From assembly GCA_035627895.1 (NCBI GenBank), contig DASPKW010000178.1:5033-69032 (forward strand): a stretch of 64,000 bases of DNA, written 5' to 3'. Position numbers and translations under genes: made by a program. This document shows positions 3,391 to 17,409 of this stretch, in pieces. This DNA comes from Tepidisphaeraceae bacterium (lineage in GTDB: Bacteria; Planctomycetota; Phycisphaerae; Tepidisphaerales; Tepidisphaeraceae). Each line of letters starts with the position of its first letter. Positions within the stretch are counted from its first letter, which is position 1. The notes under the pieces were generated by a model. The model was given only the letters and a program-made list of their open reading frames with translations. It did no database searches and was not told the origin of the DNA.

Positions 3391-4857
3391 ATGGCCTCGG
3401 TCAAGGCATGGAAGGTTCAGGAATCGGGCGAGCCCGCGTTCCCGTCCGACTTCGAGATCGCCCGCAAGGCGGTGCTCCAGGTCACGGACATCAAGACCAA
3501 CCACAATAAGTATTACGCGATCGAGCTGCACCACGCGACCAAGGACGCGGGCGACTTCGCGTTCCGCGTGTTCACGCACTACGGGCGCACGGACGATTTG
3601 GAGAACAACCCGAACGCCGGCCAGAAGGAGTGCCGGTACTACGCGACGATGGCCGAGGCCGACGCGTGCTACCAGACGATCTACCGCGAGAAGACCAACC
3701 CGCGCAAGGGGTACAAAGAGGTCTCGCTCGCGTCGACCAAGATCGGCTCGCACAAGGCCCGCGGCACGAGCGCCGGCGAAGTCGACGCCAAGACGCTCGA
3801 GAAACTCGCCAAGGCGAAGGCCGAGAAGGCCGCCAAGGAGGGCAAGCCCGTCGAGAAGCCCAAGACGCTGGACCTCGCGCCCGGCGTCCAAGACCTGGTC
3901 CGCTACATCTTCTCCGAGGCCACCAGCGCGCTGACGAGCACCGTTGCCGCCAAGATCACCGCCAACGGCATCGAGACGCCGCTCGGCGTGCTGACGATCG
4001 GACAGATCGAAAAGGGCGAGAAGATTTTGCTCGATTTGTACGAACTCTTCGAGAAGAAGAAATCTTCGAGCCTGCGCGGCAAGCTCGAAGAGTTGTCGGG
4101 CGAGTTTTACACGGTGATCCCGCACCGGATCGGGCGGACGCGCGAGGCTGTCGCCGCCGCCGTCATCGACAACATGACCGCGTTCGCCCAGAAGCAGGAA
4201 ACGCTGCAGCTCATGAAGGACATGTTGCAGGTCAACGGCGAAGAAGGGAGCGTGCTGTACGATGCGCAGGTGGACGCGCAGTACCTGTCGCTAGGCGCCG
4301 AGCTCGGCGCGCTGAACGCCGACCATCCGGCGTACCGGCAGATCGCCGACCACGTGATCAATAGCCAAGTGAAGTCGAAGTCGATCAAGGTGCAGAACGT
4401 CTTCACACTGAAGCGGCCGGGCGAGTGGGAGAGCTTCACCGAGAAGATGGACAACCAGCGCCTGCTCTTTCACGGGTCGCGCATCCAGAACTGGGTCGGC
4501 ATCCTGTCGCGCGGGATCCTGATGCCGAAGATCGTGGTGAGCCTTGGCGTGAACCGGACGGACGCCGGGTGGCTCGGGCACGGGATCTACTTCGGCGACG
4601 CGTCGTGCACGTCGGCGTTTTACACGACGCCGGGGAAGAAGAAGACCCGCCTGATGGCCGTCACGCGCGTCGCGCTGGGCAAGATGAAGGACTACACACA
4701 GATCACGTACGGCCTGTCGGCACCGCCCGAGGGGTACGACAGTTGCCACGGCGTGCGGAACACGGCCAAGGCGCCGTCGCAGTTCGCCGACGACGAGTAC
4801 GTCATCTACGACCCCCGGCAGCACCGGCAGGAGTACCTGGTCGAGTTCACGGTGTAA
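3391..4857 (+). CDS. poly(ADP-ribose) polymerase homologue: WGR domain + PARP helical regulatory domain + PARP catalytic domain
   Basis: WGR-like N-terminus (NHNKYYAIELHH...FRVFTHYGRTDD). Helical domain (VQDLVRYIFSE...LGVLTIGQIEKGEKILLDLYE). Catalytic H-Y-E signature (LLFHGSRIQNWVGILSRGI, HGIYFGD, DDEYVIYD). GGAGGG lies just upstream of ATG 3391. Confidence 0.9.
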   Translation: MASVKAWKVQESGEPAFPSDFEIARKAVLQVTDIKTNHNKYYAIELHHATKDAGDFAFRVFTHYGRTDDLENNPNAGQKECRYYATMAEADACYQTIYREKTNPRKGYKEVSLASTKIGSHKARGTSAGEVDAKTLEKLAKAKAEKAAKEGKPVEKPKTLDLAPGVQDLVRYIFSEATSALTSTVAAKITANGIETPLGVLTIGQIEKGEKILLDLYELFEKKKSSSLRGKLEELSGEFYTVIPHRIGRTREAVAAAVIDNMTAFAQKQETLQLMKDMLQVNGEEGSVLYDAQVDAQYLSLGAELGALNADHPAYRQIADHVINSQVKSKSIKVQNVFTLKRPGEWESFTEKMDNQRLLFHGSRIQNWVGILSRGILMPKIVVSLGVNRTDAGWLGHGIYFGDASCTSAFYTTPGKKKTRLMAVTRVALGKMKDYTQITYGLSAPPEGYDSCHGVRNTAKAPSQFADDEYVIYDPRQHRQEYLVEFTV

Positions 4858-4955
4858 CTCCGTGGCACGGGCTACCAGCCGCGTTCAATGTTTCGATCAG
4901 CGCGTCCGTCTTGAGATCACTGAGGTCCACGGGCTGGTAGCCCGTGCCACCGGAG
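4858..4955 (+). promoter_or_regulatory. long-stem hairpin between PARP stop and macrodomain start; the 3' arm plus flank pairs with the macrodomain Shine-Dalgarno
   Basis: Positions 4862-4880 (GTGGCACGGGCTACCAGCC) are perfectly complementary to 4932-4950. CTCC at 4858-4861 can pair with GGAG at 4952-4955 across a 1-nt bulge. The stem starts 1 nt after the PARP stop codon (4855-4857). GGAG lies 5 nt before ATG 4961. Confidence 0.6.
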
Positions 4956-4960
4956 CACTT

Positions 4961-5692
4961 ATGCTGGTCCGCGTAACCCTGGTCGACATCAATCCGAAAA
5001 TGGTCGAGGCCTGGCGATCCACGTTCGAAGCCAACCCGGAGGTCGAGATCGTCAAGGGGTCGATGCTCGAGCAGCCGGTGAGCGCCTGGGTCTCGCCGAC
5101 CAACGCGCGCGGCAGCATGGACGGCGGACTCGACGCCGTCATCAAACGACACCTCGGCCCCGGCATCGAGTCCAACCTCCAGGCGCAGATCATCCGCAAG
5201 TACGGGATGCTGAACCTCCCGGTCGGCCACGCGGTGGCGGTGCCGACGGGTCAGGTGCAGCCGCGCTACCTCATCTCGACCCCGACGATGGTCGGGTCGA
5301 GCGAGGACATCAGCGACTCGATGAACGTCGCCCTGGCGTGCGCGGCCGCGTTCCAAGCCGTCCACATGCAGAACGCCGCCGAGCCGGGGAGCGTCCGGTC
5401 GGTCGCGCTGCCCGGCCTCGGGGCCAACACCGGTCAGGTCCCGGTCGAGATCTGCGCCGACCTGATGTGGACGGCCTACAACCTGTTCCGCGAGCGCGAG
5501 TTCGACGACTTCGGGGCGATGCGCGTCGCGCTGCAGGACATTCTCGGTGACCTCGGCCCGATGGGAACGGTCGGCAAGTCGTCGGCCAGCGGCGGCGTAC
5601 CCAAGAAAGCTAAACCGGCGCCCGCCGTAAGCACCGCGCCGTCCGAGCCTGCGCCGAAGAAGAACGACGAGGACTTCGACGACTTCGGGTAA
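4961..5692 (+). CDS. macrodomain protein (ADP-ribose binding/hydrolase fold) with Lys/Pro-rich, acidic-ended tail
   Basis: Macro motifs VSPTNARGSMDGGLDAVI and VALPGLGANTGQVP. Start at ATG 4961 (MLVRVTLVDIN) preceded by GGAG. The upstream part of ORF 4862-5692 lies inside the hairpin. Confidence 0.85.
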   Translation: MLVRVTLVDINPKMVEAWRSTFEANPEVEIVKGSMLEQPVSAWVSPTNARGSMDGGLDAVIKRHLGPGIESNLQAQIIRKYGMLNLPVGHAVAVPTGQVQPRYLISTPTMVGSSEDISDSMNVALACAAAFQAVHMQNAAEPGSVRSVALPGLGANTGQVPVEICADLMWTAYNLFREREFDDFGAMRVALQDILGDLGPMGTVGKSSASGGVPKKAKPAPAVSTAPSEPAPKKNDEDFDDFG

Positions 5693-5803
5693 GCCGCGAA
5701 GCGTTTGGCCGCCGAATCCGCTCGATTACGCCGGAGGCGGAGCCTCAGGGTAATGCCCCGGATCGAATCGGACAGTTCCCCGCCCGCAACTCTGATCGCT
5801 GCC

Positions 5804-8332
5804 ATGACCCCCGCCCCCCTACGCCTCTTCAACCCGAACGGCCCCGACCGCGTCGCGGTCGTCTGGGTCGAGCCGGCGTACGGGCGGGCCGATGCGTTTC
5901 TCCTCAAACTCGCGCGCGGCCAGCGCAGCGGGCAGCTCGGCACCGGCGCCACCTACGGCCCGTACACCGAGGCCGAACTCGCAATCCCGCATGCGCAACT
6001 CGCCACCGCCCTGCTCCGCGAGGGCTTCCTCCCCGGCGGCGCGCACGGCGCGATGGACCGCCTCAAGTCCCCGGACCCCGCCGTCCGCGGGCGCGCCGCG
6101 ACCCGCCTCGGGTGGGGCGGCCACCCGCACGCCGTCGACGCGCTCCTCGCGCTCCTCCCGACCGCCGTCGACGAGGCGTGCGCGGTCATCGACGCGCTCG
6201 GCCGCCTCGGCGACCCGCGGGCTCTGCCGGCGATCCGCCCTTACGCCGCCCGCAAGCTCCTCTCCCGCCGCCGGTCCGCCGTCGAGGCCATGCGCAACCT
6301 CGGCGACGCCGAGGGCCTGATGCACGCCCGCGCCCGCACACTCGATGAACTTTCCGAGAACGTCCGCGAGGTCCTGATCCCCCTCGAAGGTGGCGAGCCG
6401 ACCGAAAAGGCGGTCTCGGCCATCGTTGAAGCGGTCACCGCCGGCGACCCGAAGCGCCGCGGGCTGACCGCCGACCTTTTGTACGAGCGCGCCACGCCCA
6501 CTGCCGTCCGGGCCGCGGTCGCGATCGTCGACCAGCTCGAGTTCGACCAGCCGTTCGCCTGGCGGTACGTGAAGAGTGTCCTCAAGCGTGCCCTGCTCCG
6601 CGACGACTTCCGCACGTTCGGCTGGCTGATTCATGAGATCGAGACCCGCGGCCGCGTCACCCGTGGCCAGCGCCATAGCGTCAAATCCGGCTACGACGGC
6701 GCCGACCGCCTCACGCTCATATTCGGCGTCCGCACCCGCGACTACCTCCGCCGCGCCACCTGGCGCCATTTGCGGACGATCGCCGCCCACCGCCCGCATC
6801 TCTACTCGGCGGCGGCCGCCGAGGCGCTGATTCACTACGCGCCCACCGACGCCGAGCCGCCGCGCAAGCGCTACGGCGCGTACGCCAGCGCCTACCTGTT
6901 CAACCGCATCCTCTTCGCCGGCGGCGACCGGCTCGAGCTGATCGGCATGAAGTTCCGCTTGCGCAAAGGCACCGCCCTCACCCCGCCGGCCGGGGCGCGC
7001 GAGGAGTCGTTCCCCGCCCTGTGGGACGCTTACCCCCAGGCCTTTGTGCGCGTCCTCGCCGCCGCGCGGACGGTCGAGGCGCAGACCTTCGCCCGTGCCG
7101 GCGTCGCCCGCCACCCGGGCGTCATGTCGGCCGCATCGATCGACGATTTGATCGGCATGCTCGACGCCCCGCACGAGCCCACCGTCTCCCTGGCGATGGC
7201 CGAGATCACTCGCCGGTTCGACCCCGCCAACCCAGACTGGGCCCTGATCGAGCGGCTTACGATGGACCCGCGCAACGCCGTCGCCGACCTCGGCCTCAAC
7301 TTCCTGGCCGACCACGTCGCCGCCTGGGCCAACGACCCCGCGCGCGTCGCCGCGCTCCTCGCCTCCCCCAGCGCCCGCGCCCGGGCCCTCGTCGCCGACC
7401 GCGTCATACTCTGGCTCGGCACGGACCACTCGACCCACGCCGAGCTCGCCGATCGGCTGATCGTCATCCTCCGCTCCCCCGAGCCCGCGCCCGGCCTGCA
7501 CGAGAGCGTCGCCCGCGTCGCCCGAGAGGCGCTGGCCGACGCCCTCTCGGCCCGCCTGTCGACCGACGAACTATTGAAGTGGATCGCGACCGGCTCGCCC
7601 GCGGCGCAAGGCGTCGCCGGCGACCTGCTCGGCCGCCGGCCCGAGGCCGTCGCCGCGCTCGGGCTCGTCGGCGTCGCCGCGCTGGCGCAGCACCCGCTGG
7701 CGGCGGTTCGGAGCGGCGGGATCGCCCTGCTACGGTCGGCGAAGGCGAGTTGGGCGACGGACCCGTCCGTCCTGCTCGTCCTGATCGAGACCGACTGGCG
7801 CGACACCCGCTCCGCTGCCCTCGCCCTGCTCCGCGACCACCTCGACGTCGCCCGCACCGGCCCCGCCGCCCTCCTCGGCATGCTCGACTCGAATCGCACC
7901 GACGTGCAGGACGTCGCGATCGACCTGGCGCGCCAGAACGCGCTGCTCCTCGACCTTCCCGCCATGGCGGCGCGCCTCGTCGAGCACCCGCACCCCCACA
8001 TGCGCCAGTTCACGCTCGAGACGGTCATCGCCCACCTCCCGGCCGGCCCCGCGCCCCTCGCCGGCCTCGAACGCTTCTGCCGCACGATCCTCCTCGACAC
8101 CTGGCCGAGCCGCCGCGAGAAGAACGACCTGATCGCCTTCCTCGGCGAGCGCGGGCTCGCGGGCGAAGAGCAGGCCCGCATCGCCGCGCGCCTGCTCGAC
8201 GAAACGCTCGCCCTCGCGGCCAAGTACGACTTCGAGCGCGCGCTCGCCGCCCTCGCCCGGCTCCGCATGTCCTACCCGCGAATCGAATCCGGCGTGCGCG
8301 TGCCCGAGCTCCAGCCGGGGGGTGCCGCATGA
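5804..8332 (+). CDS. large HEAT/ARM-repeat protein (retron accessory ARM-like candidate)
   Basis: Repeated PBS-lyase/HEAT-like units (DPAVRGRAATRLGWGGHPHAVDALLALL, DALGRLGDPRALPAIRP, RRSAVEAMRNLGD and others further along the protein). Alpha-helical, Leu/Ala-rich throughout. Stop overlaps the next start (ATGA at 8329-8332). The start is uncertain: 5804, 5753 or 5705. Confidence 0.8.
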   Translation: MTPAPLRLFNPNGPDRVAVVWVEPAYGRADAFLLKLARGQRSGQLGTGATYGPYTEAELAIPHAQLATALLREGFLPGGAHGAMDRLKSPDPAVRGRAATRLGWGGHPHAVDALLALLPTAVDEACAVIDALGRLGDPRALPAIRPYAARKLLSRRRSAVEAMRNLGDAEGLMHARARTLDELSENVREVLIPLEGGEPTEKAVSAIVEAVTAGDPKRRGLTADLLYERATPTAVRAAVAIVDQLEFDQPFAWRYVKSVLKRALLRDDFRTFGWLIHEIETRGRVTRGQRHSVKSGYDGADRLTLIFGVRTRDYLRRATWRHLRTIAAHRPHLYSAAAAEALIHYAPTDAEPPRKRYGAYASAYLFNRILFAGGDRLELIGMKFRLRKGTALTPPAGAREESFPALWDAYPQAFVRVLAAARTVEAQTFARAGVARHPGVMSAASIDDLIGMLDAPHEPTVSLAMAEITRRFDPANPDWALIERLTMDPRNAVADLGLNFLADHVAAWANDPARVAALLASPSARARALVADRVILWLGTDHSTHAELADRLIVILRSPEPAPGLHESVARVAREALADALSARLSTDELLKWIATGSPAAQGVAGDLLGRRPEAVAALGLVGVAALAQHPLAAVRSGGIALLRSAKASWATDPSVLLVLIETDWRDTRSAALALLRDHLDVARTGPAALLGMLDSNRTDVQDVAIDLARQNALLLDLPAMAARLVEHPHPHMRQFTLETVIAHLPAGPAPLAGLERFCRTILLDTWPSRREKNDLIAFLGERGLAGEEQARIAARLLDETLALAAKYDFERALAALARLRMSYPRIESGVRVPELQPGGAA

Positions 8333-10035
8333 TCCTCCAGACCCGCTATGCCGGCACCAGCGGGGTGATCAACGGCATGGCCGTCGCCCACCTCGCGTTC
8401 GCCACCAACATGCTCCGCGAGCCGACTTTGTTCGAGGGCACGCTCGCCCAGCCGCTCCTGATGCGCGAGGCCATGGGCGCCTTGCACGGCGTCGTCGTCA
8501 GCGACCACCGCTACCACCCGCGCGACCGCCTCGCGTTCTTCGCCTGGCTCGCCGAACAGGACCGCGCCTTCCTCGCCGGCCTCGCCGCCAAGGGCCAGAA
8601 GGCGCGCCAGCGCGCCGAGGCGATCAACGTGCGCCTGGCCGAACTGGACGAAGCGCGCGAGCACCGCCTCCGCCCGTTCCACGCCGCCCGCCGCCGCTAC
8701 TTCGATTACGCCTACGAGTTGGAGTACGAGCTCCAGTACCTGCTCGACCCGGTCATCACCGTCCACCCGGATGAGATCTCCTTCGAGGCCTTTTCCCGCG
8801 ACCAGAGCACCTACGCCCGCCTCGCCGCCCGGCACGAATTGTTCGCCAAAGTCGGCCACTTCGAGTGCGGCACGACCAATATCGACTTCAGCGCCCGCCT
8901 GGCGACCGAAATGCAGCGGATGCGCAGCTACCGCGACACCCGCTTCACCTTCGACCCCGGCGGGTTCACCGTCGCCCACGCCGACGTATCGGCCGCACAC
9001 AAGGAGAAGAAGATCGAGCTCCCCGAGAGCTGGGTCATGGGCTTCCTCCAGGTCCACAGCACGATGACGCTGGAACTGACCCGGCTGCGAATCGCCCTGG
9101 TCGACATGTACAACGTCTGCCGGTTTTTGCGCCGCCGAAAGGCGCGAAAGTCGCCCCGCGCCCTCCGCTACGAGCTCACGCCCGGCCAGGTCCCGCGCGT
9201 CGTCCTCGAGCCGTGGGAACACGTGATCGAGCTTGCGTCGTCCCCCGTCTACGACGGCCCGGCCTTCAAATCCGTGCGGACGTGGGGCCGCGACCGCCTC
9301 CAGGCCATCGCGCGGCTTCTGCCGGTGTGCCGCGGCGTCGACGTCTACCTCGCCGGGTTCGGCCTGCCCACGATCTACGTCGCCGACCTCGGCCCGGCCG
9401 CCTCGTTCACCCTCGCGCTCTCCGGCTGGACCGACAACGACTGGACCGGCACCACCGCCCGCTTCGACCTGCTCACCCGCCCGCTCACGATCTCGGCCGA
9501 CGAATTGATGCGCGCGTACCACGCCATGCGCGACGTGCGCGTGTCGACCGATGCCGGCCTCGCGCAGCGCACCGGCCTGACTGTCCCCCAGGCGCGCAGC
9601 GCGCTCTCGTATCTCTGTCAGGTCGGCCGAGCCATGTATGACCTCGCCGGCCGCACGTACCGCCACCGCGACTTGTTCGCCGAGCCGTTCACGCCCGGCC
9701 AAGCCGCGGCCGTCGTCAGTCCGGCTGCCGAGGAGTCCGACCCGCGCGCCAACATCGCCCGCGAGATCGTCGACTCCGACAACATCCGCATCATCGCCCG
9801 CCGCCCCGTCCCGGGCGGGTACAAGGTCAGCGGCAGCGCCAAAAGCATGGGCGACAACACGCGCCACCGCCCCCTCTTCCACATCAGCGCCGCCGGCCAC
9901 CTCATTGAGGCCGAGTGCTCGTGCGCGTTCTACAAAAAGTACAAGCTGACCCAGGGCCCGTGCGAACACGTGCTCGCCCTGCGCTTGGCCCACATGACCC
10001 GACTCGATTCGGAGAAAGGAGGCACCACGGGATGA
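8329..10035 (+). CDS. winged-helix + SWIM zinc-finger protein (WH-SWIM retron accessory candidate)
   Basis: C-terminal SWIM signature CSCAFYKKYKLTQGPCEHVLAL (CxC..CxH). WH-like segment LAQRTGLTVPQARSALSYLCQVGRAMYD. The real start is ATG 8329 (MILQTRYAG), coupled to the upstream stop. The upstream 436 codons of ORF 7021-10035 are an out-of-frame overlap with the HEAT gene. Confidence 0.85.
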   Translation: MILQTRYAGTSGVINGMAVAHLAFATNMLREPTLFEGTLAQPLLMREAMGALHGVVVSDHRYHPRDRLAFFAWLAEQDRAFLAGLAAKGQKARQRAEAINVRLAELDEAREHRLRPFHAARRRYFDYAYELEYELQYLLDPVITVHPDEISFEAFSRDQSTYARLAARHELFAKVGHFECGTTNIDFSARLATEMQRMRSYRDTRFTFDPGGFTVAHADVSAAHKEKKIELPESWVMGFLQVHSTMTLELTRLRIALVDMYNVCRFLRRRKARKSPRALRYELTPGQVPRVVLEPWEHVIELASSPVYDGPAFKSVRTWGRDRLQAIARLLPVCRGVDVYLAGFGLPTIYVADLGPAASFTLALSGWTDNDWTGTTARFDLLTRPLTISADELMRAYHAMRDVRVSTDAGLAQRTGLTVPQARSALSYLCQVGRAMYDLAGRTYRHRDLFAEPFTPGQAAAVVSPAAEESDPRANIAREIVDSDNIRIIARRPVPGGYKVSGSAKSMGDNTRHRPLFHISAAGHLIEAECSCAFYKKYKLTQGPCEHVLALRLAHMTRLDSEKGGTTG

Positions 10036-10040
10036 TCACC

Positions 10041-10080
10041 GGAGGGCGAGGCTCCGTCCCGGGAGGGCGAGGCTCCGTCC
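10041..10080. repeat. tandem direct repeat, 2 x GGAGGGCGAGGCTCCGTCC (period 21)
   Basis: Identical 19-mers at 10041-10059 and 10062-10080, immediately after the SWIM stop. Confidence 0.9.
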
Positions 10081-10088
10081 GAGCCGTT

Positions 10089-10314
10089 CGAAAGCCGCGG
10101 AGCGGCGACAGCCAATTGCCCACGGCGCGAGCCGTGGGTGGTGCAACCGCGCGACCGGCGAAAGCCCCGTAGGGGTGACAGCGGCGCGACAAGGCGCACC
10201 GCTGCCGCCCCTGCCGGGGCTCGACCGCCCGAGGATCCGAACGCCGGCTGCGACGACGACCATACCCACGACTCACGTCGTGGGCTATCGGCTGCCGCCG
10301 CTCCGCGGCTTCGA
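10089..10314. repeat. pair of inverted REP-like elements, family 2 (AAGCCGCGGAGCGGCG.CAGCC..GCCCACG.C-loop-G.CGTGGG)
   Basis: Copy A at 10089-10141 and copy B at 10264-10314 are reverse complements of each other at roughly 85% identity. Each contains its own small hairpin (CCCACGGC/GCCGTGGG and CCCACGAC/GTCGTGGG). Confidence 0.8.
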
Positions 10315-10350
10315 TCGCACCGACCGATCAACCCCCCGAATTGACTCGAC

Positions 10351-10606
10351 AATCCGATCCGTGACCGGTCGGCAGTGGCCGCGGGACTTAGCAACCTGTG
10401 CGGCGTTACGCCGCGCGTGCCCCCGTGCCTGCCATTCGTCACGTCCCCGTTCGTCACTCGCGGAATACGCCCCACCCGGCCCGCTGCTGGGTGGGATCTC
10501 CGATCCCGCGGGCTTCGGGTGGGGCGTATTCCGCTTAAGTGGAACGAGCACGTCCTCGGGACGTTCGTAAGCGACGGCCCACTGCCGACCGGTCACGGAT
10601 CGGGTT
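10351..10606 (+). ncRNA. candidate retron non-coding RNA (msr/msd)
   Basis: A perfect 25-bp inverted repeat (10354-10378 with 10579-10603, extendable to 28 bp with one G:U) closes the structure. Inside are a small hairpin (10400-10414), a long roughly 75-nt hairpin (10460-10534, about 31 bp in three helices) and a further hairpin (10544-10568). The element lies on the same strand as the retron-type RT, 212 nt upstream of it. Confidence 0.5.
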
Positions 10607-10817
10607 AAAGCACAACGCTAATGAGCGCAACGAACGACACCTCGTTTAGCCGCGACCCGAAGGGCGAGCGACAGCGCCGCCCGCAGGCGAGCGCGTCGAA
10701 CCTCGAACCTCCGCACGCACTCGCGACGCCTTCCCCGCCATTGAAACCCGCTGCCGCCGTTCATCGCAGGGACGTTCGACGTCTGTCCGCCTCGCCCCAC
10801 CGCACTTTCACCCCGTC

Positions 10818-12209
10818 ATGCCCAGCTCCGAAAAGGCCATCCTCTACCACCGCATCACCCAGCTCCCCCCGATGGTGCTGCTGGACCGCATGCGCCTCCA
10901 CGGCTTCTGGCCCGCCGGGCAAGGCCTGCCCCCAGACCCGCCCGAGGAATCCGCCGAGCGCGCCAAGCTCACCGTCGAACTGGCCAACCTCCAGCCCGGC
11001 GGGGCGACGCCACAGGAAGCCGAGCACCTCCTCGCCGCCGAGCGCAAGCGCCGCTGGGCCGAGAGCAAGAAGCGCCGCGCCGAGCGCAAACAAGCCCGCC
11101 TTAAAGCCCACCAGGCCTGGCTCGACACTTGGAACGCCGCCCGGGCCATCTCGATCACTCACCTCGGCGAAGGCGTCAGCGGCGGGCTCGCGTTCAACCT
11201 CAGCGACGCCCCCCTGCTCGCCAGCCGCAGCCTGCCCGTCCTGCACGACGCCGCGCAACTCGCCGCCGCCATCCGCATCCCGCTCGCCACGCTCCGCTGG
11301 CTCACGTACCACCGCCGCGGCGCCACCCTCGTCCACTACCACCGCTACGACGTCGCCAAGAAGACCGGCAAGGCCCGGTCCATCTCCGCCCCCAAGCCGG
11401 CGCTCAAAGGCGCGCAGGCGTGGGTGCTGGAGCACGTGCTGTCGAGGGTGCCCGCCGAGCCGCAGGTCCACGGCTTCGTCCCCGGCCGGTCGATCGTCTC
11501 CAACGCCGCGCCCCACGTCGGCCGCGCGGTCGTCATCAACCTCGACCTGAAAGACTTCTTCCCCTCGATCACGTTCCGGCGGGTGAAGGGCGTCTTCGAA
11601 GCGCTCGGCTACAGCGAACAGGTCGCCACCGTCCTCGCACTCCTCTGTACCGAGCCCCCGCGCGTCCCGGCCGAGGTGCGCGGGAAGCGCTACCACGTCG
11701 CGCTCGGCGAGCGCGTCCTGCCGCAGGGGGCATCGACCAGTCCGGCGATCACCAACCTCCTCTGCCGAAAGCTCGACAAGCGTCTGACCGGCCTGGCCGC
11801 CCGCCTCGGCTTCACCTACACCCGCTACGCCGACGACCTCACCTTCTCGTCGGACGACACGAGCCGAATCAACTGGCTCTTCCGCGGCGTGCGGATGATC
11901 CTCAAGGCCGAGGGCCTCACCGAGCACGCCGACAAGACCCACGTCATGCGCCGTTCGGGCCGGCAGGAGGTCACCGGCGTCACCGTCAACGCCCGGACGA
12001 CGCTAGGGCGAGACGAGGCGCGCGAGCTCCGCGCCACTCTCCACAACGCCGCGAAGCACGGCCTCGAAAGTCAGAACCGCGAAAAACGCCCAAACTTCGC
12101 CGCCTACCTGCGTGGCCGCGTCGCCTTCGCCAGCATGGTCGACCCCGTCCGCGCCCCCCAATGGCAGTCGAAGCTCCGAGCCGCGCTCGGCGGGGCTGCC
12201 TCTACCTGA
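10818..12209 (+). CDS. retron-type reverse transcriptase with roughly 130-aa N-terminal extension
   Basis: RT motifs INLDLKDFFPSI, LPQGASTSPAITNL and YTRYADDLTFS. Retron hallmarks NAxxH (SNAAPH) and VTG (QEVTGVTVN). Colinear with my recollection of the Ec86 RT sequence (ISAP..LK..Q.W.L; LGY; LD.R..G). Confidence 0.9.
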   Translation: MPSSEKAILYHRITQLPPMVLLDRMRLHGFWPAGQGLPPDPPEESAERAKLTVELANLQPGGATPQEAEHLLAAERKRRWAESKKRRAERKQARLKAHQAWLDTWNAARAISITHLGEGVSGGLAFNLSDAPLLASRSLPVLHDAAQLAAAIRIPLATLRWLTYHRRGATLVHYHRYDVAKKTGKARSISAPKPALKGAQAWVLEHVLSRVPAEPQVHGFVPGRSIVSNAAPHVGRAVVINLDLKDFFPSITFRRVKGVFEALGYSEQVATVLALLCTEPPRVPAEVRGKRYHVALGERVLPQGASTSPAITNLLCRKLDKRLTGLAARLGFTYTRYADDLTFSSDDTSRINWLFRGVRMILKAEGLTEHADKTHVMRRSGRQEVTGVTVNARTTLGRDEARELRATLHNAAKHGLESQNREKRPNFAAYLRGRVAFASMVDPVRAPQWQSKLRAALGGAAST

Positions 12210-13257
12210 TCAACCGCGCCAGTTCGAGAAGTTCCTCCGACCGCTCCACCTCCCGCACCCACTCCTCCGGCAGCGCCCCGATGCCGCACCGCGCCCCGCA
12301 CAGCGCGCCCGCCAGCGTCGCGATGCTGTCGCTGTCGCCCGGCGTGTTTGCCCCTTCGAGGATCGCCGCCGCCGGGTCGTCCGGGTGGCGGCAGAACACG
12401 TACGCCGCCGCCGCGATCGCCTCGTGGGCCGCCCACGCCCGCAGGCGGTCCAGCGTCACCTCGGGCCCGACCTTCTCCCGCGCGTCGGCGATCGCGTCGA
12501 CCATCATCCCTGCCGTCGGCGCGCTATAGCGCAGCGCCGCCGCGGTCATCTCCGACGCGACGTAATCGGGCTCCTCGCCGCGCAGGGCCAGCGCCGTCCC
12601 CACGGCCATCGCCGCCGACGCCGCCAGCGCGATCGGGTCCCGATGCGTCAGCTTCGAATGCTGCACGGCCCACTCTTCCGCCTTCCGCAAGTCGTCGCGA
12701 AACACCAGCCCGAACGGGTACGCCCGCATGACCGACCCACACCCCCCCGCCGTCGCCCCGCCCGCCGTCGACCAGTGCGCGCCCGCCGCCAGCGCCCGGC
12801 ACCCGGCCAGGCACGCGTTCCCAGGCGCGCGGTGCCCGCCCTGCGGCCGCTCCGACCACTCGACAAATCGCTTCGCCATCCCCGTCATCGCCCGGTCCAG
12901 ATCCTCGCGTTCGTCCAGCAGCGCCCGCAGCACGCACTCGGCCATCTGCGTGTCGTCCGTGTACGGCGCCACGCGCCGCCCGTCCGCCCCCTGCCGGTAC
13001 AACTCAAACTTCCGCACCCCGCCCGGCCCATACCGCTCGCAGATCGCCCCCATGGACATGAACTCCGTCGGATGCCCCATCGCGTCCCCGATCGCCCCGC
13101 CCAACACGGCCCCCACCATCCGCTCCTCCAAAGTCGGCGCCGCCGCCGCCGCCGCCGCCGGACGCGCTCCCTTGCCCGCCGGCGAGCCGCTCTCCCCTCC
13201 GATCGAGTGCGGCACCCCGTCGAATAGACCGAACGTGGAGGAATCGCCTTCTGCCAT
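12202..13257 (-). CDS. ADP-ribosylglycohydrolase (ARH/DraG family)
   Basis: ARH motifs GAVLGGAIGDAMGHPTEF, YTDDTQM and GDSDSIATLAGALCGA. The 3' end overlaps the RT 3' end by 8 nt (convergent). An alternative start at 13119 would skip the poly-Ala leader. Confidence 0.85.
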   Translation of the reverse strand: MAEGDSSTFGLFDGVPHSIGGESGSPAGKGARPAAAAAAAPTLEERMVGAVLGGAIGDAMGHPTEFMSMGAICERYGPGGVRKFELYRQGADGRRVAPYTDDTQMAECVLRALLDEREDLDRAMTGMAKRFVEWSERPQGGHRAPGNACLAGCRALAAGAHWSTAGGATAGGCGSVMRAYPFGLVFRDDLRKAEEWAVQHSKLTHRDPIALAASAAMAVGTALALRGEEPDYVASEMTAAALRYSAPTAGMMVDAIADAREKVGPEVTLDRLRAWAAHEAIAAAAYVFCRHPDDPAAAILEGANTPGDSDSIATLAGALCGARCGIGALPEEWVREVERSEELLELARLIR

Positions 13258-13731: not shown

Positions 13732-13780
13732 AAATGAGTGCGCTGGGGCTCGAACCCAGGACCTACGGATTAAAAGTCCG
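13732..13780 (-). repeat. att direct repeat, distal copy (displaced 3' fragment of tRNA-Lys)
   Basis: AAATGAGTGCGCTGGGGCTCGAACCCAGGACCTACGGATTAAAAGTCCG is identical to 29955-30003. Confidence 0.9.
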
Positions 13781-14049
13781 GGGCAGATCGGCGAGTTTCC
13801 GGGGGAATCATGCGATTCCCGCCCGCGCTTACCGTCAGACTTACCGTCCGGGCCGTTCTCCCCCGTGCTCCGGCGGGCCGAGATGAAGCCGGCCCCGGCG
13901 AGCATCGACGACGCGCTCGCGCGGATGGCGGCCAAGGTACGGGCGGCAATCGGGCGATCACTGTCTTCCACCGGACCGGCCCGGTAAACTCTGGTCTGAG
14001 GATTCTCTCACAGCGAACCTTATTGAGCGATCTTAAGAGGAGGCGGGCT

Positions 14050-14574
14050 ATGAGCGGGGCGATCCTTGGACTGGTCGGCGTGCTGATTGGCGCGACGATT
14101 TCGGCCCTCACGACGTACATCAATTCCTCGCGACAGGAGCGATTCGCAAGGGAGAGGGCGGCGGCCGATCGACTCGCGGAGACGCAACGGGCGGCCCGGA
14201 TGGTCGAGTACGATCTATCGCACCTCCGCGGGATCTGCGTCTCGGCTTTGGATTGGCAATATTTCCTCAACTCGTACGGCGACATGCTCGAACTTCCCCG
14301 ATGGGCAAAATGGTGCGAGATGCTCGCCCTTCACTTGCCCGCGGACGACTGGGAGACCATCACGTGCGCCGCGATTCGGGGCGACGCCGTCAAGGTCATG
14401 TGGGAAAAGGATGCCAATTCGGGATTCCCGCCGTTCGACAGTGCACGCAAACACGAGCTCGCAGGTATTGTGGAGCTCATCGAGTTCGCGATCGACCAAC
14501 TTTCGAAGTACACCGGGGTGAAGAGCCCGCGTGCCCGGGCTTTGGAGGCCGCCGCGACTCCCGAGGTTCCGTGA
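14050..14574 (+). CDS. hypothetical membrane-anchored protein (element cargo)
   Basis: N-terminal TM segment MSGAILGLVGVLIGATISALTTY followed by a helical domain. Visibly lower GC than the flanks. Start chosen at internal ATG 14050. Confidence 0.55.
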   Translation: MSGAILGLVGVLIGATISALTTYINSSRQERFARERAAADRLAETQRAARMVEYDLSHLRGICVSALDWQYFLNSYGDMLELPRWAKWCEMLALHLPADDWETITCAAIRGDAVKVMWEKDANSGFPPFDSARKHELAGIVELIEFAIDQLSKYTGVKSPRARALEAAATPEVP

Positions 14575-14727
14575 TTCGCGTATGGTTGGGCGCAGCGGGC
14601 TCCGATTTGCCAAACGCCATTGCAGCCACGATCGAGGGGGAGGGGTGTCCGCGAACACGTCTCCGGGGCCGATCGTCGCTCTACGGTGCCTTTCCGGCCC
14701 GCCGTTCGGCTTCTGGCGGGGTATGAT

Positions 14728-15009
14728 ATGGACATGAGCAGGGCCAACGACGTACAGGCGATGATCCGCCAGGTGCTGAGCCTCAGCATGTCCCTCCCGA
14801 CCGTGCGGGCGGTCGTCGGGATGTTGCACGAGGGGAAGACGGCCCGGGAGATCGGGGCGGCGGAGGGGAAGAGCCGGGCGGCGATCCTCAAGCGGCTGCA
14901 GCGGCTCCGGGCGAAGGCCAAGTTGTACGGCGTCGAGATCCCGGCGCCGAAGGTGCGGCGGCGGAAGGACCGCGTCACGCTGGCGGCTCATGCCAGGCGG
15001 GCGGGTTGA
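14728..15009 (+). CDS. small HTH protein (sigma-70 region 4 / LuxR-like)
   Basis: MLHEGKTAREIGAAEGKSRAAILKRLQRLRAKA is an HTH-like segment. Start at ATG 14728. Confidence 0.5.
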   Translation: MDMSRANDVQAMIRQVLSLSMSLPTVRAVVGMLHEGKTAREIGAAEGKSRAAILKRLQRLRAKAKLYGVEIPAPKVRRRKDRVTLAAHARRAG

Positions 15010-15094
15010 ACCGATGCCCGTAAATACGGGGGGGGGTAGCTACTGAAAATCCTAGGTAGCCCGGTCGCCGTTCCGGGGGTTAGACCGTCGGCAG

Positions 15095-15295
15095 ATGCCG
15101 CGAGCTTCTGATCACCTTCGGGACGCGTGCGACCAACTCAACGGGGCGTTCGCAGAGCTGGAGTCGCTGATCCGTAGCCGGGGGGCGGACCGCAATCGCC
15201 TCTTGGTGATCGCCCGGACGCTAACCGAAACGATGCTCGACCTGACCGTCATCTTGCGGCAGGTGCTGGCGTGGGAGCGGCGGAAGACAGGCTAA
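15095..15295 (+). CDS. hypothetical small helical protein
   Basis: 66-aa ORF with non-degenerate composition (LRDACDQLNGAFAELESLIRSRG...). No homology recognised. Confidence 0.35.
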   Translation: MPRASDHLRDACDQLNGAFAELESLIRSRGADRNRLLVIARTLTETMLDLTVILRQVLAWERRKTG

Positions 15296-15487
15296 CTCTT
15301 GCTAACCTTCCGCGGGTTCATGTCCCACAGCGAAACTGGACAAAATTGGGCGCGCGTCGCGGGACTTTTCCCGCCTCACCCGGTCGATCGACCTCGCGTA
15401 ACACGTTGCACAGCCGGACGCTCCGCAGGGAAGGCGGGGCGAGACGGTCGCTCATGCGGCGTCGGGGGCGTCAGTAATTTTGACACC

Positions 15488-15661
15488 GGGGTAGATCGCC
15501 CTCGATTCGGGTGCCACATTGCGGGCGGGGACGGGAATTATGTCCGGGGGGTAGATCGAACGCGTCTTCGCCGGTCGAATTTCCGCACCGGGGTAGATCG
15601 CCCACGAAATGCGGGCGGAAATGCAGCGCCGGGTCGAATTTCCGAATGGGGGTAGATCGCC
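15488..15661 (+). repeat. iteron set A: 4 x GGGGTAGATCG(C/A)(C/A)
   Basis: Copies start at 15488, 15548, 15590 and 15649. The last two sit inside a longer 30-bp unit, GGTCGAATTTCCG-N4/5-GGGGTAGATCGCC (15573-15602 and 15632-15661). Confidence 0.85.
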
Positions 15662-15716
15662 GCGGTTACCGGGGCGAGAACGCAGTCGAGAGGGCGGCAG
15701 ATCAGCGGCCGGGGCA

Positions 15717-16217
15717 CGTTAAGGTTTGTTAAGGTTCCCGCGGGGCGGCAACGCGATGTCTTACACCGCAAAACTCTCGGCGATCCCCCGGTTTTTCCGG
15801 CCATTTCACTTTCGTCCGGCAGGGTTTTGCGGAGTGCCGGCGCCTAGGGGGACGGCGACCGCAGAACCGCATCACGCATGCGGGTCGCGCGGCGCGGGGG
15901 AGGCTAAGGAAAGCTAAGGTTTTCGCGGCGCGTGTCCCACAGTCTCACCCCCGGCGCGAACCTTAGAAAACCTTATGTTCGCCGCGTGCGTGTCTCACGC
16001 CCAAATGCGCACCGGAGACGCATTTGCCACCCGTCCGACCCTCACGAAACCTCACGCCGGCGCGGCGCGTGTCTCACCCCGGAACCTAACAAAACCTAAC
16101 ATTTCCGCCGACGTGCGTCCCACGTCCCGGAACCTCAGAAAACCTCAGATTCCGGCGAGCCAAAGTGGCAACCGGTTGCCACTTTGACCGGCCGCGCGAA
16201 CCTTACCAAACCTTACC
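15717..16217. repeat. iteron set B: 7 bipartite units AACCTnnn-(A)n-AACCTnnn (5 direct, 2 inverted)
   Basis: Direct units at about 15958-15976 (CCTTAG/CCTTAT), 16038-16056 (CCTCAC x2), 16082-16101 (CCTAAC x2), 16129-16149 (CCTCAG x2) and 16198-16217 (CCTTAC x2). Inverted units at 15717-15737 and 15901-15921. Four of the five direct units (all but 16198-16217) are preceded by a GTGTC(C/T)CAC / GTCCCAC-type box. Confidence 0.8.
16161..16186. repeat. perfect 26-bp palindrome CAAAGTGGCAACC|GGTTGCCACTTTG
   Basis: Read directly from the sequence. It lies between iteron units inside the non-coding field. Confidence 0.9.
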
Positions 16218-16222
16218 TCCCG

Positions 16223-16432
16223 TCACGCGGCGTTGCGGCCCTGGCTCGACGGGCGGACGGCGTGCGGCGCCAGCTTCCGGGCCCGCTGGATCCGCTTGTA
16301 GGCGGCCGCGCGGCTGATCCCGAACTCAGCGGCGATCTCGGCGGGCGTCCGATCGTCGTTGAACCGGACGACGGCCAGCCGGAGGCGGGGCGTCAGGAGC
16401 TGCGCGAGCGGCACGCGTGGTGGGCGGGGCAT
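16223..16432 (-). CDS. small HTH DNA-binding protein
   Basis: 69 aa: MPRPPRVPLAQLL...RTPAEIAAEFGISRAAAYKRIQRARK (HTH). Start at internal ATG 16432. Confidence 0.55.
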   Translation of the reverse strand: MPRPPRVPLAQLLTPRLRLAVVRFNDDRTPAEIAAEFGISRAAAYKRIQRARKLAPHAVRPSSQGRNAA

Positions 16433-16449
16433 GGGATCATGGTAGCCCG

Positions 16450-16956
16450 TCAGGGGTCGAGCAGCTTCCGGAAGTCCTGCGCGAGAAGGTATTCCAGCTT
16501 TTCGAAAAGCGACTGAGCCTCGCGAGCCCTCGCAATTCCCCCGGGCTCTGAGGTGGCCACGTCTCCATGCGCGTCCCGGAACCCGGTGATCACCTCGTGC
16601 AACTTCGCGATGGCGATATCGCCCATGAGCGAGACGGACGACGGGAGCACGACGCGGTTCTCGAAATAGTAACGTTCTAGGCTTTCGCTCACCTTCATAG
16701 CCCGCGCGTAGGCGGTGGCCCTTTCGCTCGCGAAGGCCGTCGGATCCAGCATTATCGCGATCGCCCGGGACGTGCGGGCAAGCCGTCGAGCGAGTCCGAT
16801 CGCGACACCCGCCCGCAACTCGTAAAGTTTCGGATAGCGGGTGCGTCGTTCGAAGTCTTTTCGATCTACCCGGGCCTTGAGCAGGTACCCAATGGCCGCC
16901 CCGACGCTCGCCGCGCCGAGCAGGATGCCCGCGACCTCTTTGAGCCACTGAAGCAT
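16450..16956 (-). CDS. hypothetical membrane-anchored protein (element cargo)
   Basis: MLQWLKEVAGILLGAASVGAAIGYLL is a TM segment, followed by a helical domain. Lower GC than the flanks. Start at ATG 16956. Confidence 0.55.
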   Translation of the reverse strand: MLQWLKEVAGILLGAASVGAAIGYLLKARVDRKDFERRTRYPKLYELRAGVAIGLARRLARTSRAIAIMLDPTAFASERATAYARAMKVSESLERYYFENRVVLPSSVSLMGDIAIAKLHEVITGFRDAHGDVATSEPGGIARAREAQSLFEKLEYLLAQDFRKLLDP

Positions 16957-16963
16957 CGTCCCG

Positions 16964-17230
16964 CTACTTTCCCTTCGCCTTGCCCTTCCCCTTCGCGGCT
17001 GGCTTGACGAGCAGCTCCGCCGGGTCGACCTCGAGCGCGGCGGCGATCTTGCCCAGCGTCTCGAGCGTGACGTTCGACCGCCGGCCCGATTCAATGTCGT
17101 TCCACTGTGACCGCCCGGCCTTGAGCCCGGCGCGGTCGGCGGCGTCGCCCTGGCTCAGGTTGAGGGCCTCGCGGAGCGTCTTCACCTTATCGAGGTCGAG
17201 CATGAGGGCGGCGGGGGGTTCGGTGACCAT
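16964..17230 (-). CDS. XRE-family (Cro/CI-type) HTH transcriptional regulator
   Basis: LREALNLSQGDAADRAGLKAGRSQWNDIESGRRSNVTLETLGKIAAALEV is a canonical HTH_3 pattern. Divergent from the element's rightward genes. Confidence 0.85.
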   Translation of the reverse strand: MVTEPPAALMLDLDKVKTLREALNLSQGDAADRAGLKAGRSQWNDIESGRRSNVTLETLGKIAAALEVDPAELLVKPAAKGKGKAKGK

Positions 17231-17277
17231 GTACGAAGATTAACGTACGGCGGGGCGGGGTGGGTCGACAAAATCAG

Positions 17278-17330: not shown

Positions 17331-17409
17331 ACTCCGTATCAAACAAGTCGAGCCCGACCCGGCCAAGTTTGGCGACAGAACCGGGAAGGGCCCAACAGGA
17401 GTCCGGATC

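Follow-up and report, generated by a model that had tools for sequence, protein, structure and literature searches.

Retrons encode a reverse transcriptase (RT) that copies the msd part of a non-coding RNA (ncRNA) into branched, hairpin-forming msDNA, and in retrons whose effectors are NAD+-linked or otherwise enzymatic, for instance the type II retron Ec86/Eco1, RT and ncRNA yield an msDNA that controls a co-encoded effector. To our knowledge, none of the known retron effectors is a PARP and none is accompanied by dedicated ADP-ribose erasers. Type XIII retrons, as delineated by Mestre et al. 2020, comprise RT clade 10 and, as accessory genes, those for WH-SWIM and WGR-like/HEAT-ARM proteins, and include Mx162, Mx65, Sa163 and Ne144. 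In the window, the 64,000-nucleotide stretch of Tepidisphaeraceae DNA analyzed here, a retron of this known type lies in a conserved block with a PARP and two ADP-ribose-removing enzymes. The block is apparently unreported: the literature searched contained no paper linking PARPs to retrons, nor any description of a combination that the preliminary description of this DNA had regarded as new. We tentatively interpret the locus as one functional unit, a distinct type XIII subclade into which a module for reversible ADP-ribosylation has been recruited as a gated effector, and we place this interpretation a little below an even chance.

A direct check of the window located all six open reading frames of the preliminary description at the coordinates and on the strands it had given (Table 1), namely the WGR-PARP_reg-PARP, Macro, HEAT/ARM, WH-SWIM and retron RT genes as well as the convergent ARH gene, and Pfam searches matched every domain it had named (WGR, PARP_reg, PARP, Macro, SWIM, RVT_1 and ADP_ribosyl_GH). 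The described coupling of the ARM and SWIM genes corresponds to 4 shared nucleotides, and the 8-nt overlap of RT and ARH lies at 12202–12209. No terminator-like sites were predicted on the + strand of the window. Upstream, the block is preceded by ordinary genes for an FAD oxidoreductase and a DUF1559 protein. The tRNA-Lys hotspot proposed to lie beside the locus is correct in substance, as a partial tRNA-Lys copy is found close to the ARH start, and the 16.3-kb element between the two tRNA-Lys copies encodes an integrase and a phage head-maturation protease.

Table 1 Features of the PARP-linked retron locus and its flank in the window.
Feature	Position	Strand	Supporting data
WGR-PARP_reg-PARP ADP-ribosyltransferase, 488 aa	3391..4857	+	Pfam WGR 3e-8, PARP_reg 1e-19, PARP 7.5e-31
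Macrodomain protein, 243 aa	4961..5692	+	Pfam Macro 5.7e-13
HEAT/ARM-repeat protein of retron type XIII, 842 aa	5804..8332	+	PADLOC HEAT-ARM_XIII 6e-65; Pfam HEAT_2 3e-11
WH-SWIM protein of retron type XIII, 568 aa	8329..10035	+	PADLOC SWIM_XIII 7e-176; Pfam SWIM 1.4e-3
Retron ncRNA (msr-msd), 256 nt	10351..10606	+	a1 10351-10378; a2 10579-10606
Retron reverse transcriptase type XIII, 463 aa	10818..12209	+	PADLOC RT_XIII 3.8e-158; Pfam RVT_1 2.7e-24
ADP-ribosylglycohydrolase (ARH/DraG family), 351 aa	12202..13257	-	Pfam ADP_ribosyl_GH 7e-63; converges on RT
49-nt direct copy of tRNA-Lys 3' part	13732-13780		475 nt from ARH start
Intact tRNA-Lys	29958-30030		

The type XIII identity earlier deduced from the ARM and WH-SWIM partners is borne out by the agreement of PADLOC models, RT motifs, a CxCx12CxH finger and the ncRNA. 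RT_XIII was the best of 70 PADLOC RT models for the window RT. In this protein the N-terminus is extended by a conserved stretch of about 135 aa, the NAxxH (N229, A230, H233), YADD (337–340) and VTG (385–387) motifs are invariant, and the nearest match among solved structures is the RT of retron Ec86 (8.5e-47). The WH-SWIM protein contains the finger as C530-x-C532-x12-C545-x-H547, together with the conserved acidic residues D140, D148, E153, D186 and E226. Sequence searches found no solved homologue of this protein, and Foldseek analysis of its AF2 model (pLDDT 87.1, pTM 0.84) returned PCNAs as top matches (E 5e-8, probability 1.0, TM by target 0.55–0.71). Its central part is predicted to adopt a PCNA/DNA-clamp-like fold with no recognisable nuclease fold, which would make the PARP the clearest enzymatic output of the locus. 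The ARM protein starts with a degenerate WGR-like region, and its match to the WGR_XIII profile does not begin before position 112; hhalign relates this N-terminus to the WGR of classical type XIII ARM proteins, which carry a Pfam WGR at their N-terminus, with a probability of 70% (E 4e-5); the bona fide WGR of the window resides on the PARP. Tight co-evolution of ARM and WH-SWIM with the RT is established for the family, and the ARM and the clamp-like WH-SWIM proteins most likely assemble with RT and msDNA.

The structured RNA claimed to lie ahead of the RT is real, as judged by its inverted repeats, fold z-score and covariation. The a1 and a2 repeats of 28 nt are 96% complementary and lie 200 nt apart, and the RNA, with GUGCGGCGUUACGCCGCGC as its conserved msr hairpin and an extended msd hairpin, folds with −172 kcal/mol (z = −10.6 against shuffles). 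By analogy with other retrons, the putative branching G is placed at about 10391, within a conserved UUAGC. Across 31 homologous loci, 90.7% of the cells were paired compared to 35–44% in slid controls, a value as high being obtained in 0/500 shuffles, and compensatory changes were observed for 32 of 43 pairs, with far lower numbers in the controls. Homologous a1/a2 pairs with differing arm sequences occur in more than 60 loci, and nhmmer searches with the ncRNA core yielded a match upstream of the RT in all PARP-clade loci having RT-upstream sequence, except four orphan-RT loci (L066–L068, L090). Some loci carry the ncRNA in duplicate, and one (L064) has a WGR-β-propeller gene immediately before ncRNA and RT.

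For the PARP, the catalytic triad H361-Y400-E469 and the WGR motif HYGRT are intact and retained in its homologues (H and Y in 68/68, E in 66/68, HYGRT in 68/68); among solved structures it comes closest to the PARP4 catalytic domain (2.6e-46) and to PARP2, WGR included (1.7e-25). The macrodomain motifs N48-x6-G55-G56-L-D58 and G152-x-G154...G158 are invariant in 68 sequences, with an identity of about 65–83% among homologues, and the protein ends in a low-complexity linker followed by a conserved acidic tip, DFDDFG, of which DFDD is conserved in about 60 loci. Its matches to solved structures are weak, pointing to the DarG macrodomain (5m31, 5e-4) with the single sequence and to yeast YMR087W (4e-8) and macroH2A1.1 with a profile. 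The ARH is closest to MJ1187 (1.7e-26), DraG (1.9e-18) and ARH3 (2.7e-13) and its metal-site motifs are present. Based on these essentially invariant PARP, WGR and macro motifs and the ARH metal site, the enzymes look active at the sequence level.

PARP, macrodomain and ARH genes were also found beside the RT module in other genomes, in keeping with the association proposed from this single locus. Among 54 informative loci of the PARP-seeded genomes, 37 show the order PARP-macro-ARM-SWIM-RT on one strand, 28 of them complete and 9 truncated by the contig; they belong to Planctomycetota, Myxococcota and Gammaproteobacteria, and their median gaps are 44, 145 and 18 nt, with 352 nt for the interval spanning the ncRNA. 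An NJ tree of an RT-seeded metagenome sample unites the PARP-linked RTs in a single clade, in which 12 of 14 informative loci are linked (11 carrying the PARP and one more with the contig cut at the macrodomain), compared to 0/21 classical type XIII loci. PARP distances correlated with those of ARM, SWIM and RT (Mantel r of 0.88, 0.85 and 0.84, p = 0.001), part of which could stem from shared species phylogeny. Among the flanking genes, ARH alone represents a conserved family, an ARH gene being located no more than 5 kb away in only about half of the PARP-retron loci (24 of 46). These ARHs belong to three or more lineages, which are 60% or more, 36–41% and 26–30% identical to the window ARH, and are found in four or more different positions; classical type XIII loci have no ARH, and in two proteins (P0212 and P0228) an ARH is fused to the RT C-terminus. 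The synteny with its short gaps and lack of a predicted terminator, the single linked clade with its co-diverging partners, the repeated capture of ARH, and the intact enzymes sharing the WGR as a common theme of type XIII partners argue together for one functional unit.

Nevertheless, the linkage is not obligate. Seventeen informative loci scattered over the PARP tree have PARP-macro as a two-gene unit followed by opposite-strand genes and no adjacent retron, one MAG (L010/L142) carries the PARP and retron modules 38 kb apart on the same contig, locus L143 has no adjacent PARP, and no PARP was found within 10 kb of the RT-ARH fusion locus. Such separability, along with the opposite strand of the window ARH, would fit modules that are mere neighbours through a shared island or one ancestral arrangement and do not interact biochemically. 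We consider this highly improbable, as order and orientation persist across three phyla amid unrelated flanks, the linked RTs constitute one clade with which the PARP co-diverges, classical relatives lack the linkage altogether, and ARH was recruited independently from three lineages and even fused to the RT.

The ties of ARH to the RT itself, by fusion or by immediate succession, and this at loci lacking a neighbouring PARP as well, also bear on a reversal of roles, in which the retron complex or its msDNA would be the substrate: the PARP would mark msDNA ends or RT, ARM and SWIM, the macrodomain and ARH would remove the marks, and the cycle would tune an ARM-SWIM effector, the PARP not being a toxic output. 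PARP1-3 can ADP-ribosylate DNA ends, and macrodomain and ARH3 enzymes reverse such marks; moreover, two different eraser families are retained, DarG, which hydrolyses ADP-ribose from DNA, is the nearest, albeit weak, match of the macrodomain when a single sequence serves as query, and classical type XIII retrons work without a PARP, which may therefore be an added regulatory layer. However, the profile search favours YMR087W and macroH2A over DarG, the DarG stretch PTKKHW, presumably holding its catalytic lysine, aligns with PTMVGS in the window, and the SWIM protein offers no recognisable enzymatic fold as the effector to be regulated. Overall, this alternative appears rather unlikely.

For the one-unit interpretation, the recurrence of WGR domains among type XIII partners (WGR-ARM, WGR-PARP and WGR-β-propeller) suggests that msDNA may be the WGR ligand gating the PARP. 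The WGR would read the state of msDNA or its complex, for example a DNA end that becomes exposed, is cleaved or is set free once the retron is disturbed by phage or DNA damage, and WGR binding would open the helical regulatory domain and switch on the H-Y-E catalytic domain as in PARP1-3. The active PARP would ADP-ribosylate targets and use up NAD+, arresting the cell or the invader, whereas macrodomain and ARH would strip ADP-ribose, keeping basal activity harmless and resetting the system. The mature msDNA 5' end is branched, unlike the 5'-phosphate preferred by PARP WGR domains, so that gating would require a processing or damage step. A role in defence would be conceivable from this scheme. 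On the other hand, the accessible literature contains no demonstration of anti-phage activity for any type XIII retron, the PARP identity of 65–83% across phyla is unusually high for a defence effector, no copies were found on the viral contigs searched, and plasmids yielded distant homologues only. The last three points could describe a domesticated housekeeping or stress module, with PARP, macrodomain and ARH in DNA-damage signalling and a retron that is inherited vertically and serves as their cofactor or sensor, as would the conserved macrodomain, the chromosomal location, the ability of PARP-macro to stand alone and the ordinary upstream neighbours. Mestre et al. correlated type XIII with host 16S and suggested domestication. 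Yet the near-identical architecture, with PARP identities of 62–70%, in three phyla with different flanking genes indicates horizontal transfer, the block is distributed patchily, having repeatedly been lost or split up, the accessories vary as is typical of conflict systems (swapped ARH lineages, the WGR-β-propeller variant, ncRNA duplications), and the window block adjoins an integration hotspot, leaving domestication distinctly improbable. As one unit, the block offers a testable function for bacterial PARPs and type XIII retrons alike.

Compared to classical type XIII retrons, the locus shares matches to the RT_XIII, SWIM_XIII and HEAT-ARM_XIII models, the ARM-SWIM-ncRNA-RT order, the ncRNA family (nhmmer matches of 1e-4 to 1e-7 in classical loci) and the finger and acidic motif of the SWIM protein. 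It differs in its separate RT clade (53–73% identity to the window RT versus 40–50% for classical RTs), an ARM protein about 190 aa shorter with a degenerate WGR, the upstream PARP-macro pair and the associated ARH. No cultured Myxococcus RT was among the best 120 relatives of a Myxococcaceae-MAG member of the PARP-linked clade, which therefore probably does not include the Mx162 and Mx65 RTs. With PARP1/2/3 and the PARPs of Herpetosiphon aurantiacus and Clostridioides difficile, the window PARP has in common the WGR, helical regulatory domain and H-Y-E transferase, although by sequence its catalytic domain is nearest to vault PARP4 rather than PARP1/2/3. The two bacterial PARPs are likewise co-encoded with an eraser, PARG, in place of which the window has macrodomain and ARH. 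Unlike eukaryotic and other bacterial PARPs, the window PARP is encoded within a retron operon, a context not reported in reviews of bacterial PARPs; Firmicutes plasmid PARPs are stand-alone genes of 25–30% identity. DarTG, a toxin-antitoxin and defence system of reversible DNA ADP-ribosylation, likewise encodes an ADP-ribosyl writer together with an eraser of the macrodomain type, and the DarG macrodomain is a weak match of the one in the window. In contrast to DarTG, the window writer is a PARP and not DarT, its macrodomain has no lysine aligned with the DarG stretch that presumably holds the catalytic one and by profile favours other families, and a second eraser and a retron are added. Finally, the locus as proposed would follow the same logic as type II Ec86/Eco1, where msDNA controls the effector, with unrelated effector families.

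The six open reading frames proposed in the preliminary description are all present as described, as established by an ORF check and Pfam domain assignment, within a window of 69% G+C, and two pairs of them overlap, by 4 nt (ARM/SWIM) and by 8 nt (RT/ARH). The RT, 100% identical to P0121 on a 73-kb contig, assigns the window to a MAG of the Tepidisphaeraceae (Planctomycetota). An HMM check with the PADLOC models for the RT, SWIM and ARM proteins further upheld the proposal that the ARM + WH-SWIM retron is of type XIII, RT_XIII being the best of 70 PADLOC RT models for the window RT. None of the PADLOC models matched the PARP, macro or ARH proteins of the window. In the main text of Mestre et al. 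2020, type XIII is defined with WGR-like/ARM and WH-SWIM partners. The RT motifs are invariant, comprising NAxxH (N229, A230, H233), YADD (Y337-A-D-D340) and VTG (V385-T-G387), and the nearest solved structure is the Ec86 RT.

Coordinates of the genes of the block, of the adjacent phage-like element and of the duplicated ncRNA cores in related loci
Feature	Sequence	Position (nt)	Strand	Remarks
WGR + PARP_reg + PARP	window	3391-4857	+	Pfam
Macro	window	4961-5692	+	Pfam
HEAT_2 (ARM)	window	5804-8332	+	Pfam; PADLOC HEAT-ARM_XIII 6e-65
SWIM	window	8329-10035	+	Pfam; PADLOC SWIM_XIII 7e-176
RVT_1 (RT)	window	10818-12209	+	Pfam; PADLOC RT_XIII 3.8e-158
ADP_ribosyl_GH (ARH)	window	12202-13257	-	Pfam
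Head-maturation protease	window	23932-25122		
Integrase ORF	window	28402-30081		runs across tRNA, probably over-extended
tRNA-Lys	window	29958-30030	-	
ncRNA core copies	L002	6841-7026 + 7280-7465		
ncRNA core copies	L018	16693-16877 + 16942-17126		
ncRNA core copies	L064	1569-1754 + 1899-2085		

The structured RNA that had been proposed upstream of the RT, at 10351-10606, is borne out by its a1/a2 repeats, its fold z-score and its covariation. Its ends are 28-nt inverted repeats with 96% complementarity, and the fold reaches z = -10.6 relative to shuffled sequence. Over 60 related loci have the same a1/a2 arrangement in the SWIM-RT interval, with arms of 14-35 nt that are ~200 nt apart and vary in sequence from locus to locus. 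Alignment of 31 of these ncRNAs revealed a strongly conserved core, and by RNAalifold 32 of the 43 pairs show compensatory changes. In these 31 RNAs, 90.7% of the cells in the consensus structure are paired, compared to 35-44% when the partners were slid by 1-3 columns, and the covariation score of 0.467 stands against at most 0.118 for the slid controls and was reached by none of 500 shuffles. The region is a genuine retron msr-msd, a type XIII ncRNA for which Rfam holds no model. Throughout the retron family, RT and ncRNA together yield a branched, hairpin msDNA. We also observed that the ncRNA core is tandemly duplicated 5' of the RT in three related loci (L002, L018 and L064). A partial core match (model positions 117-183, E 1.4e-7) at 4486-4552 (-) of the locus L016, on the opposite strand and ~4 kb 5' of a PARP-macro pair that lies at a contig end, may stem from the decay or rearrangement of a retron.

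The SWIM-RT intergenic region measures 786 nt in the window as compared to ~350 nt elsewhere, and contains, between the SWIM stop and the ncRNA, a further inverted-repeat pair (10092-10139 and 10264-10311) with 48-nt arms, 88% complementary and 124 nt apart. Both arms match Rfam Acido-Lenti-1 (50.6 and 39.9 bits), the only Rfam matches in this region. Acido-Lenti-1 was rejected as a part of the retron: the pair was not found in 8 related loci and is specific to the window, arguing for an insertion rather than a component of the system, and it resembles a small MITE-like insertion. Directly after the SWIM stop, positions 10036-10077 hold a 21-nt direct repeat in two tandem copies, TCACCGGAGGGCGAGGCTCCG and TCCCGGGAGGGCGAGGCTCCG.

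The proposed synteny of PARP, macro and ARH with the RT module recurs in other genomes, as found in both a PARP-seeded and an RT-seeded sample. For the former, one genome per GTDB species was searched with the PARP, yielding 61 loci onto which the window proteins were mapped by tblastn. The complete co-directional order PARP-macro-ARM-SWIM-RT is present in 28 of these 61, and 9 further loci keep it as far as the contig end; 17 have PARP-macro with adequate flank and without a retron (three of them without a macro match), and 7 were too short for judgement. The linked loci belong to Planctomycetota (Gemmataceae, Isosphaeraceae including the cultured Tautonia, Pirellulales, Tepidisphaeraceae), Myxococcota (Myxococcaceae, Polyangiales, Sandaracinaceae) and Gammaproteobacteria (Lysobacterales/Xanthomonadales). 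PARP and macro are separated by a median of 44 nt, macro and ARM by 145 nt, ARM and SWIM by 18 nt, and SWIM and RT by 352 nt, the last gap including the ncRNA. Pairwise divergence of the PARPs parallels that of ARM, SWIM and RT (Mantel r 0.84-0.88, p = 0.001), the values among the retron genes themselves being 0.93-0.96. Since the flanks beyond the block are unrelated from clade to clade, the block moves as a unit.

The RT-seeded sample, obtained by searching metagenomes with an RT alignment, comprised 80 loci. In an NJ tree, a single clade unites the RTs that share 52% or more identity with the window RT, and in 11 of the 14 informative loci of this PARP clade PARP-macro lies upstream, a twelfth contig ending within macro. 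RTs with 40-50% identity are those of classical ARM-SWIM-RT retrons, and neither PARP, macro nor ARH was found within 10 kb in any of 21 informative classical type XIII loci. The window block represents a subclade of type XIII retrons that is associated with PARP, macro and ARH.

Adjacency is frequent but not obligate, as evidenced by three kinds of loci. Retron-less PARP-macro pairs stand at at least 6 places in the PARP tree, each forming a unit of two genes beyond which the strand changes; on one Myxococcaceae MAG contig (CAYUSB010000005.1) a PARP-macro locus (L010) and a PARP-clade ARM-SWIM-ncRNA-RT locus (L142) lie ~38 kb apart; and an RT-ARH fusion locus has no PARP within 10 kb. Such separations are what one might expect if the retron and PARP/macro/ARH were independent neighbours, a reading that we regard as highly improbable next to the recurrent gene order and the correlated distances. 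As a separate observation, four loci (L066, L067, L068 and L090) contain intact or near-intact orphan RTs of the PARP clade (58-61% identity), whose flanks, of up to 10 kb on either side, contain no detectable ncRNA, SWIM, ARM or PARP; the L067 RT has an EPSP synthase on its upstream side and an Imm49 gene on its downstream side. No relatives of the window PARP were found on viral contigs, and plasmid PARPs are only 23-31% identical, all without retrons. A stand-alone distant WGR-PARP (25% identity) on the Bacillus thuringiensis Bt407 plasmid BTB_502p (L146, 232182-233429) adjoins a nucleotidyltransferase + SAVED pair (CBASS-like) and a DUF262 gene, a setting that hints at other bacterial PARPs also residing in defence-rich regions.

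Clustering of all flanking ORFs identified ARH as the sole other flanking family common to several clades, 24 of the 46 PARP-retron loci having one no more than 5 kb away. An ARH lineage ~64-79% identical to the window ARH is placed convergently after the RT or upstream of PARP, another (36-41%) co-directionally and directly after the RT, and another (26-30%) co-directionally and directly before PARP. Furthermore, the proteins P0212 and P0228 are RT::ARH fusions of 779-780 aa with the RT amino-terminal and the ARH carboxy-terminal, the ARH part of P0228 being 26% identical to the window ARH. In the locus L143, with the order ARM-SWIM-ncRNA-RT::ARH, the fusion occupies 10001-12343, and no PARP-macro was found within 10 kb of it. 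The window ARH itself is nearest, among solved structures, to MJ1187, DraG and ARH3. The repeated recruitment of ARH from different lineages, once as a fusion, provides strong evidence that the system needs ARH activity. An eraser joined directly to the RT would also suit a regulatory, reversible modification with msDNA or the retron proteins as its substrate; we consider this alternative unlikely, though worth weighing.

A WGR domain recurs throughout these systems. In classical type XIII ARM proteins (~1016-1052 aa), Pfam recognises a WGR at the N-terminus and the PADLOC WGR_XIII profile matches over its whole length; those of the PARP-linked clade (826-857 aa) have no Pfam WGR and match the WGR_XIII profile only from position 112. 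The notion that ARM is here simply without WGR was rejected in favour of a putative degenerate WGR-like N-terminus after an hhalign match, albeit a distant one (probability 70%, E 4e-5), to the classical WGR (the cluster 216_1 feature). No similarity was detected between this ARM N-terminus and the WGR of the window PARP, and the latter aligns with the classical ARM WGR (E 1.4e-4), with a YGR motif in both. In L064 (59-1537, 3934-4551), a WGR-β-propeller (PQQ/WD40-like) gene directly precedes the duplicated ncRNA and an RT of the PARP clade, occupying the usual place of SWIM on a contig that begins just upstream of the WGR gene; downstream of this RT, we noted genes for a dCTP-deaminase-like and a GIDE-domain protein. 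Every type XIII partner architecture in the survey comes with a WGR domain. As the WGR domains of PARP1-3 bind DNA ends, msDNA is the obvious candidate WGR ligand, and retron-made msDNA might be the physiological ligand (allosteric activator) or a substrate of the bacterial WGR-PARP, which we deem possible but doubtful. That the block is a housekeeping DNA-damage pathway instead of a defence system seems distinctly unlikely to us.

In the WH-SWIM protein, the SWIM finger CxCx12CxH (C530, C532, C545, H547) is invariant, and conservation extends to the acidic residues (D140, D148, E153, D186, E226) of the DEDE motif described by Mestre et al. A sequence search returned no solved homologue. An AF2 model based on an alignment of 40 diverse representatives (pLDDT 87, pTM 0.84) matches PCNA sliding clamps over residues ~140-365 (Foldseek E ~5e-8, probability 1.0, TM by target 0.55-0.71), and no nuclease or transposase fold was matched by Foldseek for the central part. 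We thus predict with high confidence a PCNA/sliding-clamp-like double domain at ~140-365, in which the invariant acidic residues would sit in the first subdomain. In the literature this accessory protein is a putative DEDE nuclease or transposase relative, and the predicted clamp-like fold of the 'nuclease' would also alter the view of classical type XIII retrons.

The catalytic triad of the PARP is conserved among 68 homologues (H361 68/68, Y400 68/68, E469 66/68), as is the WGR signature HYGRT (68/68). For its catalytic domain the best match is vault PARP4 (2.6e-46), and the match to PARP2 includes the WGR. In the macrodomain, N48, G55, G56, D58 and a second glycine motif are invariant; a single-sequence search gave a weak match to DarG and a profile search yeast YMR087W and macroH2A1.1, the single-sequence structure model (pLDDT 42.7) being too poor to use. 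The macro C-terminus (5560-5692) forms a Pro/Lys/Ala-rich low-complexity linker followed by an acidic tip, D-F-D-D-[FASTH]-[EGD], which we take to resemble the C-terminal tip of SSB. The tip is present in ~60 homologues (L001-L144), covering retron-linked and most retron-less PARP-macro loci, and missing in L037, L045, L051 and L060, all four without a retron.

Beside the locus, the tRNA-Lys hotspot with its phage-like element was likewise recovered, the element beginning 475 nt past the ARH gene. This integrase-bearing element of 16.3 kb (13732-30003) is inserted at the tRNA-Lys and bordered by a 49-nt direct repeat (13732-13780 = 29955-30003), a copy of the 3' part of the tRNA. A sigma-70 promoter scan of the window returned nothing, which is uninformative for a Planctomycete.

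Together, these data lead us to a tentative reading of the whole block, to which we assign slightly less than an even chance. ARM and the clamp-like SWIM protein would hold the RT-msDNA complex, and altered or released msDNA would be sensed by the PARP WGR. The PARP regulatory domain could then open, resulting in target ADP-ribosylation and NAD+ consumption, with macro and ARH clearing basal modification and resetting the system. Should msDNA indeed be the ligand or substrate of the WGR-PARP, the reading held above to be possible but doubtful, the block would be the first prokaryotic pathway with reverse-transcribed DNA controlling (poly)ADP-ribosylation. It would then act as an alarm for immunity or stress that has its own erasers, would be a bacterial counterpart of the DNA-break signalling by eukaryotic PARPs and perhaps related to it, and would provide a function for the retron type that has been known longest.

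The first retrons to be discovered, Mx162 and Mx65, are of type XIII. No cultured Myxococcus RT is among the 120 best matches to a Myxococcaceae-MAG RT of the PARP clade, so this clade probably does not include the Mx162 and Mx65 RTs. For type XIII, we found in the literature no demonstrated function, obvious effector or phage-protection test. It is more than 10 years since bacterial PARPs became known, yet reviews still describe their function as unknown and find it unclear whether PAR metabolism works in bacteria, and neither surveys nor reviews of them report a retron context. PARP or ADP-ribosylation is without mention in the main text of Mestre et al. 2020 and in a 2026 survey that counted 26 planctomycete type XIII retrons. 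In the searchable literature, we found no report of a retron with PARP, macro and ARH, in line with the preliminary description, an earlier mention elsewhere being possible. PADLOC, and by report DefenseFinder, would flag just the three retron genes, missing half of the system. The conserved block over three phyla offers a testable hypothesis for bacterial PARPs and type XIII retrons alike, namely that msDNA read by WGR may lead to ADP-ribosylation, and cultured hosts are at hand in Tautonia plasticadhaerens (CP036426.1, with the block at ~7.859-7.868 Mb) and T. sociabilis.

Compared with known systems, the block differs from the bacterial PARP-PARG operon in its erasers, which are Pfam Macro and ADP_ribosyl_GH with no PARG match among the neighbours. 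It differs from DarTG in its writer, which is DarT there and a PARP in the window; moreover, the window macro has no lysine at the DarG PTKKHW position (5m31 alignment), and its profile favours other macro classes. PARP4, the closest solved catalytic domain, is labelled a mono-ADP-ribosyltransferase by its depositors. With the DNA-dependent PARPs (ARTD, PARP1-3-like), the window PARP shares the domain set WGR + PARP_reg + PARP with H-Y-E.
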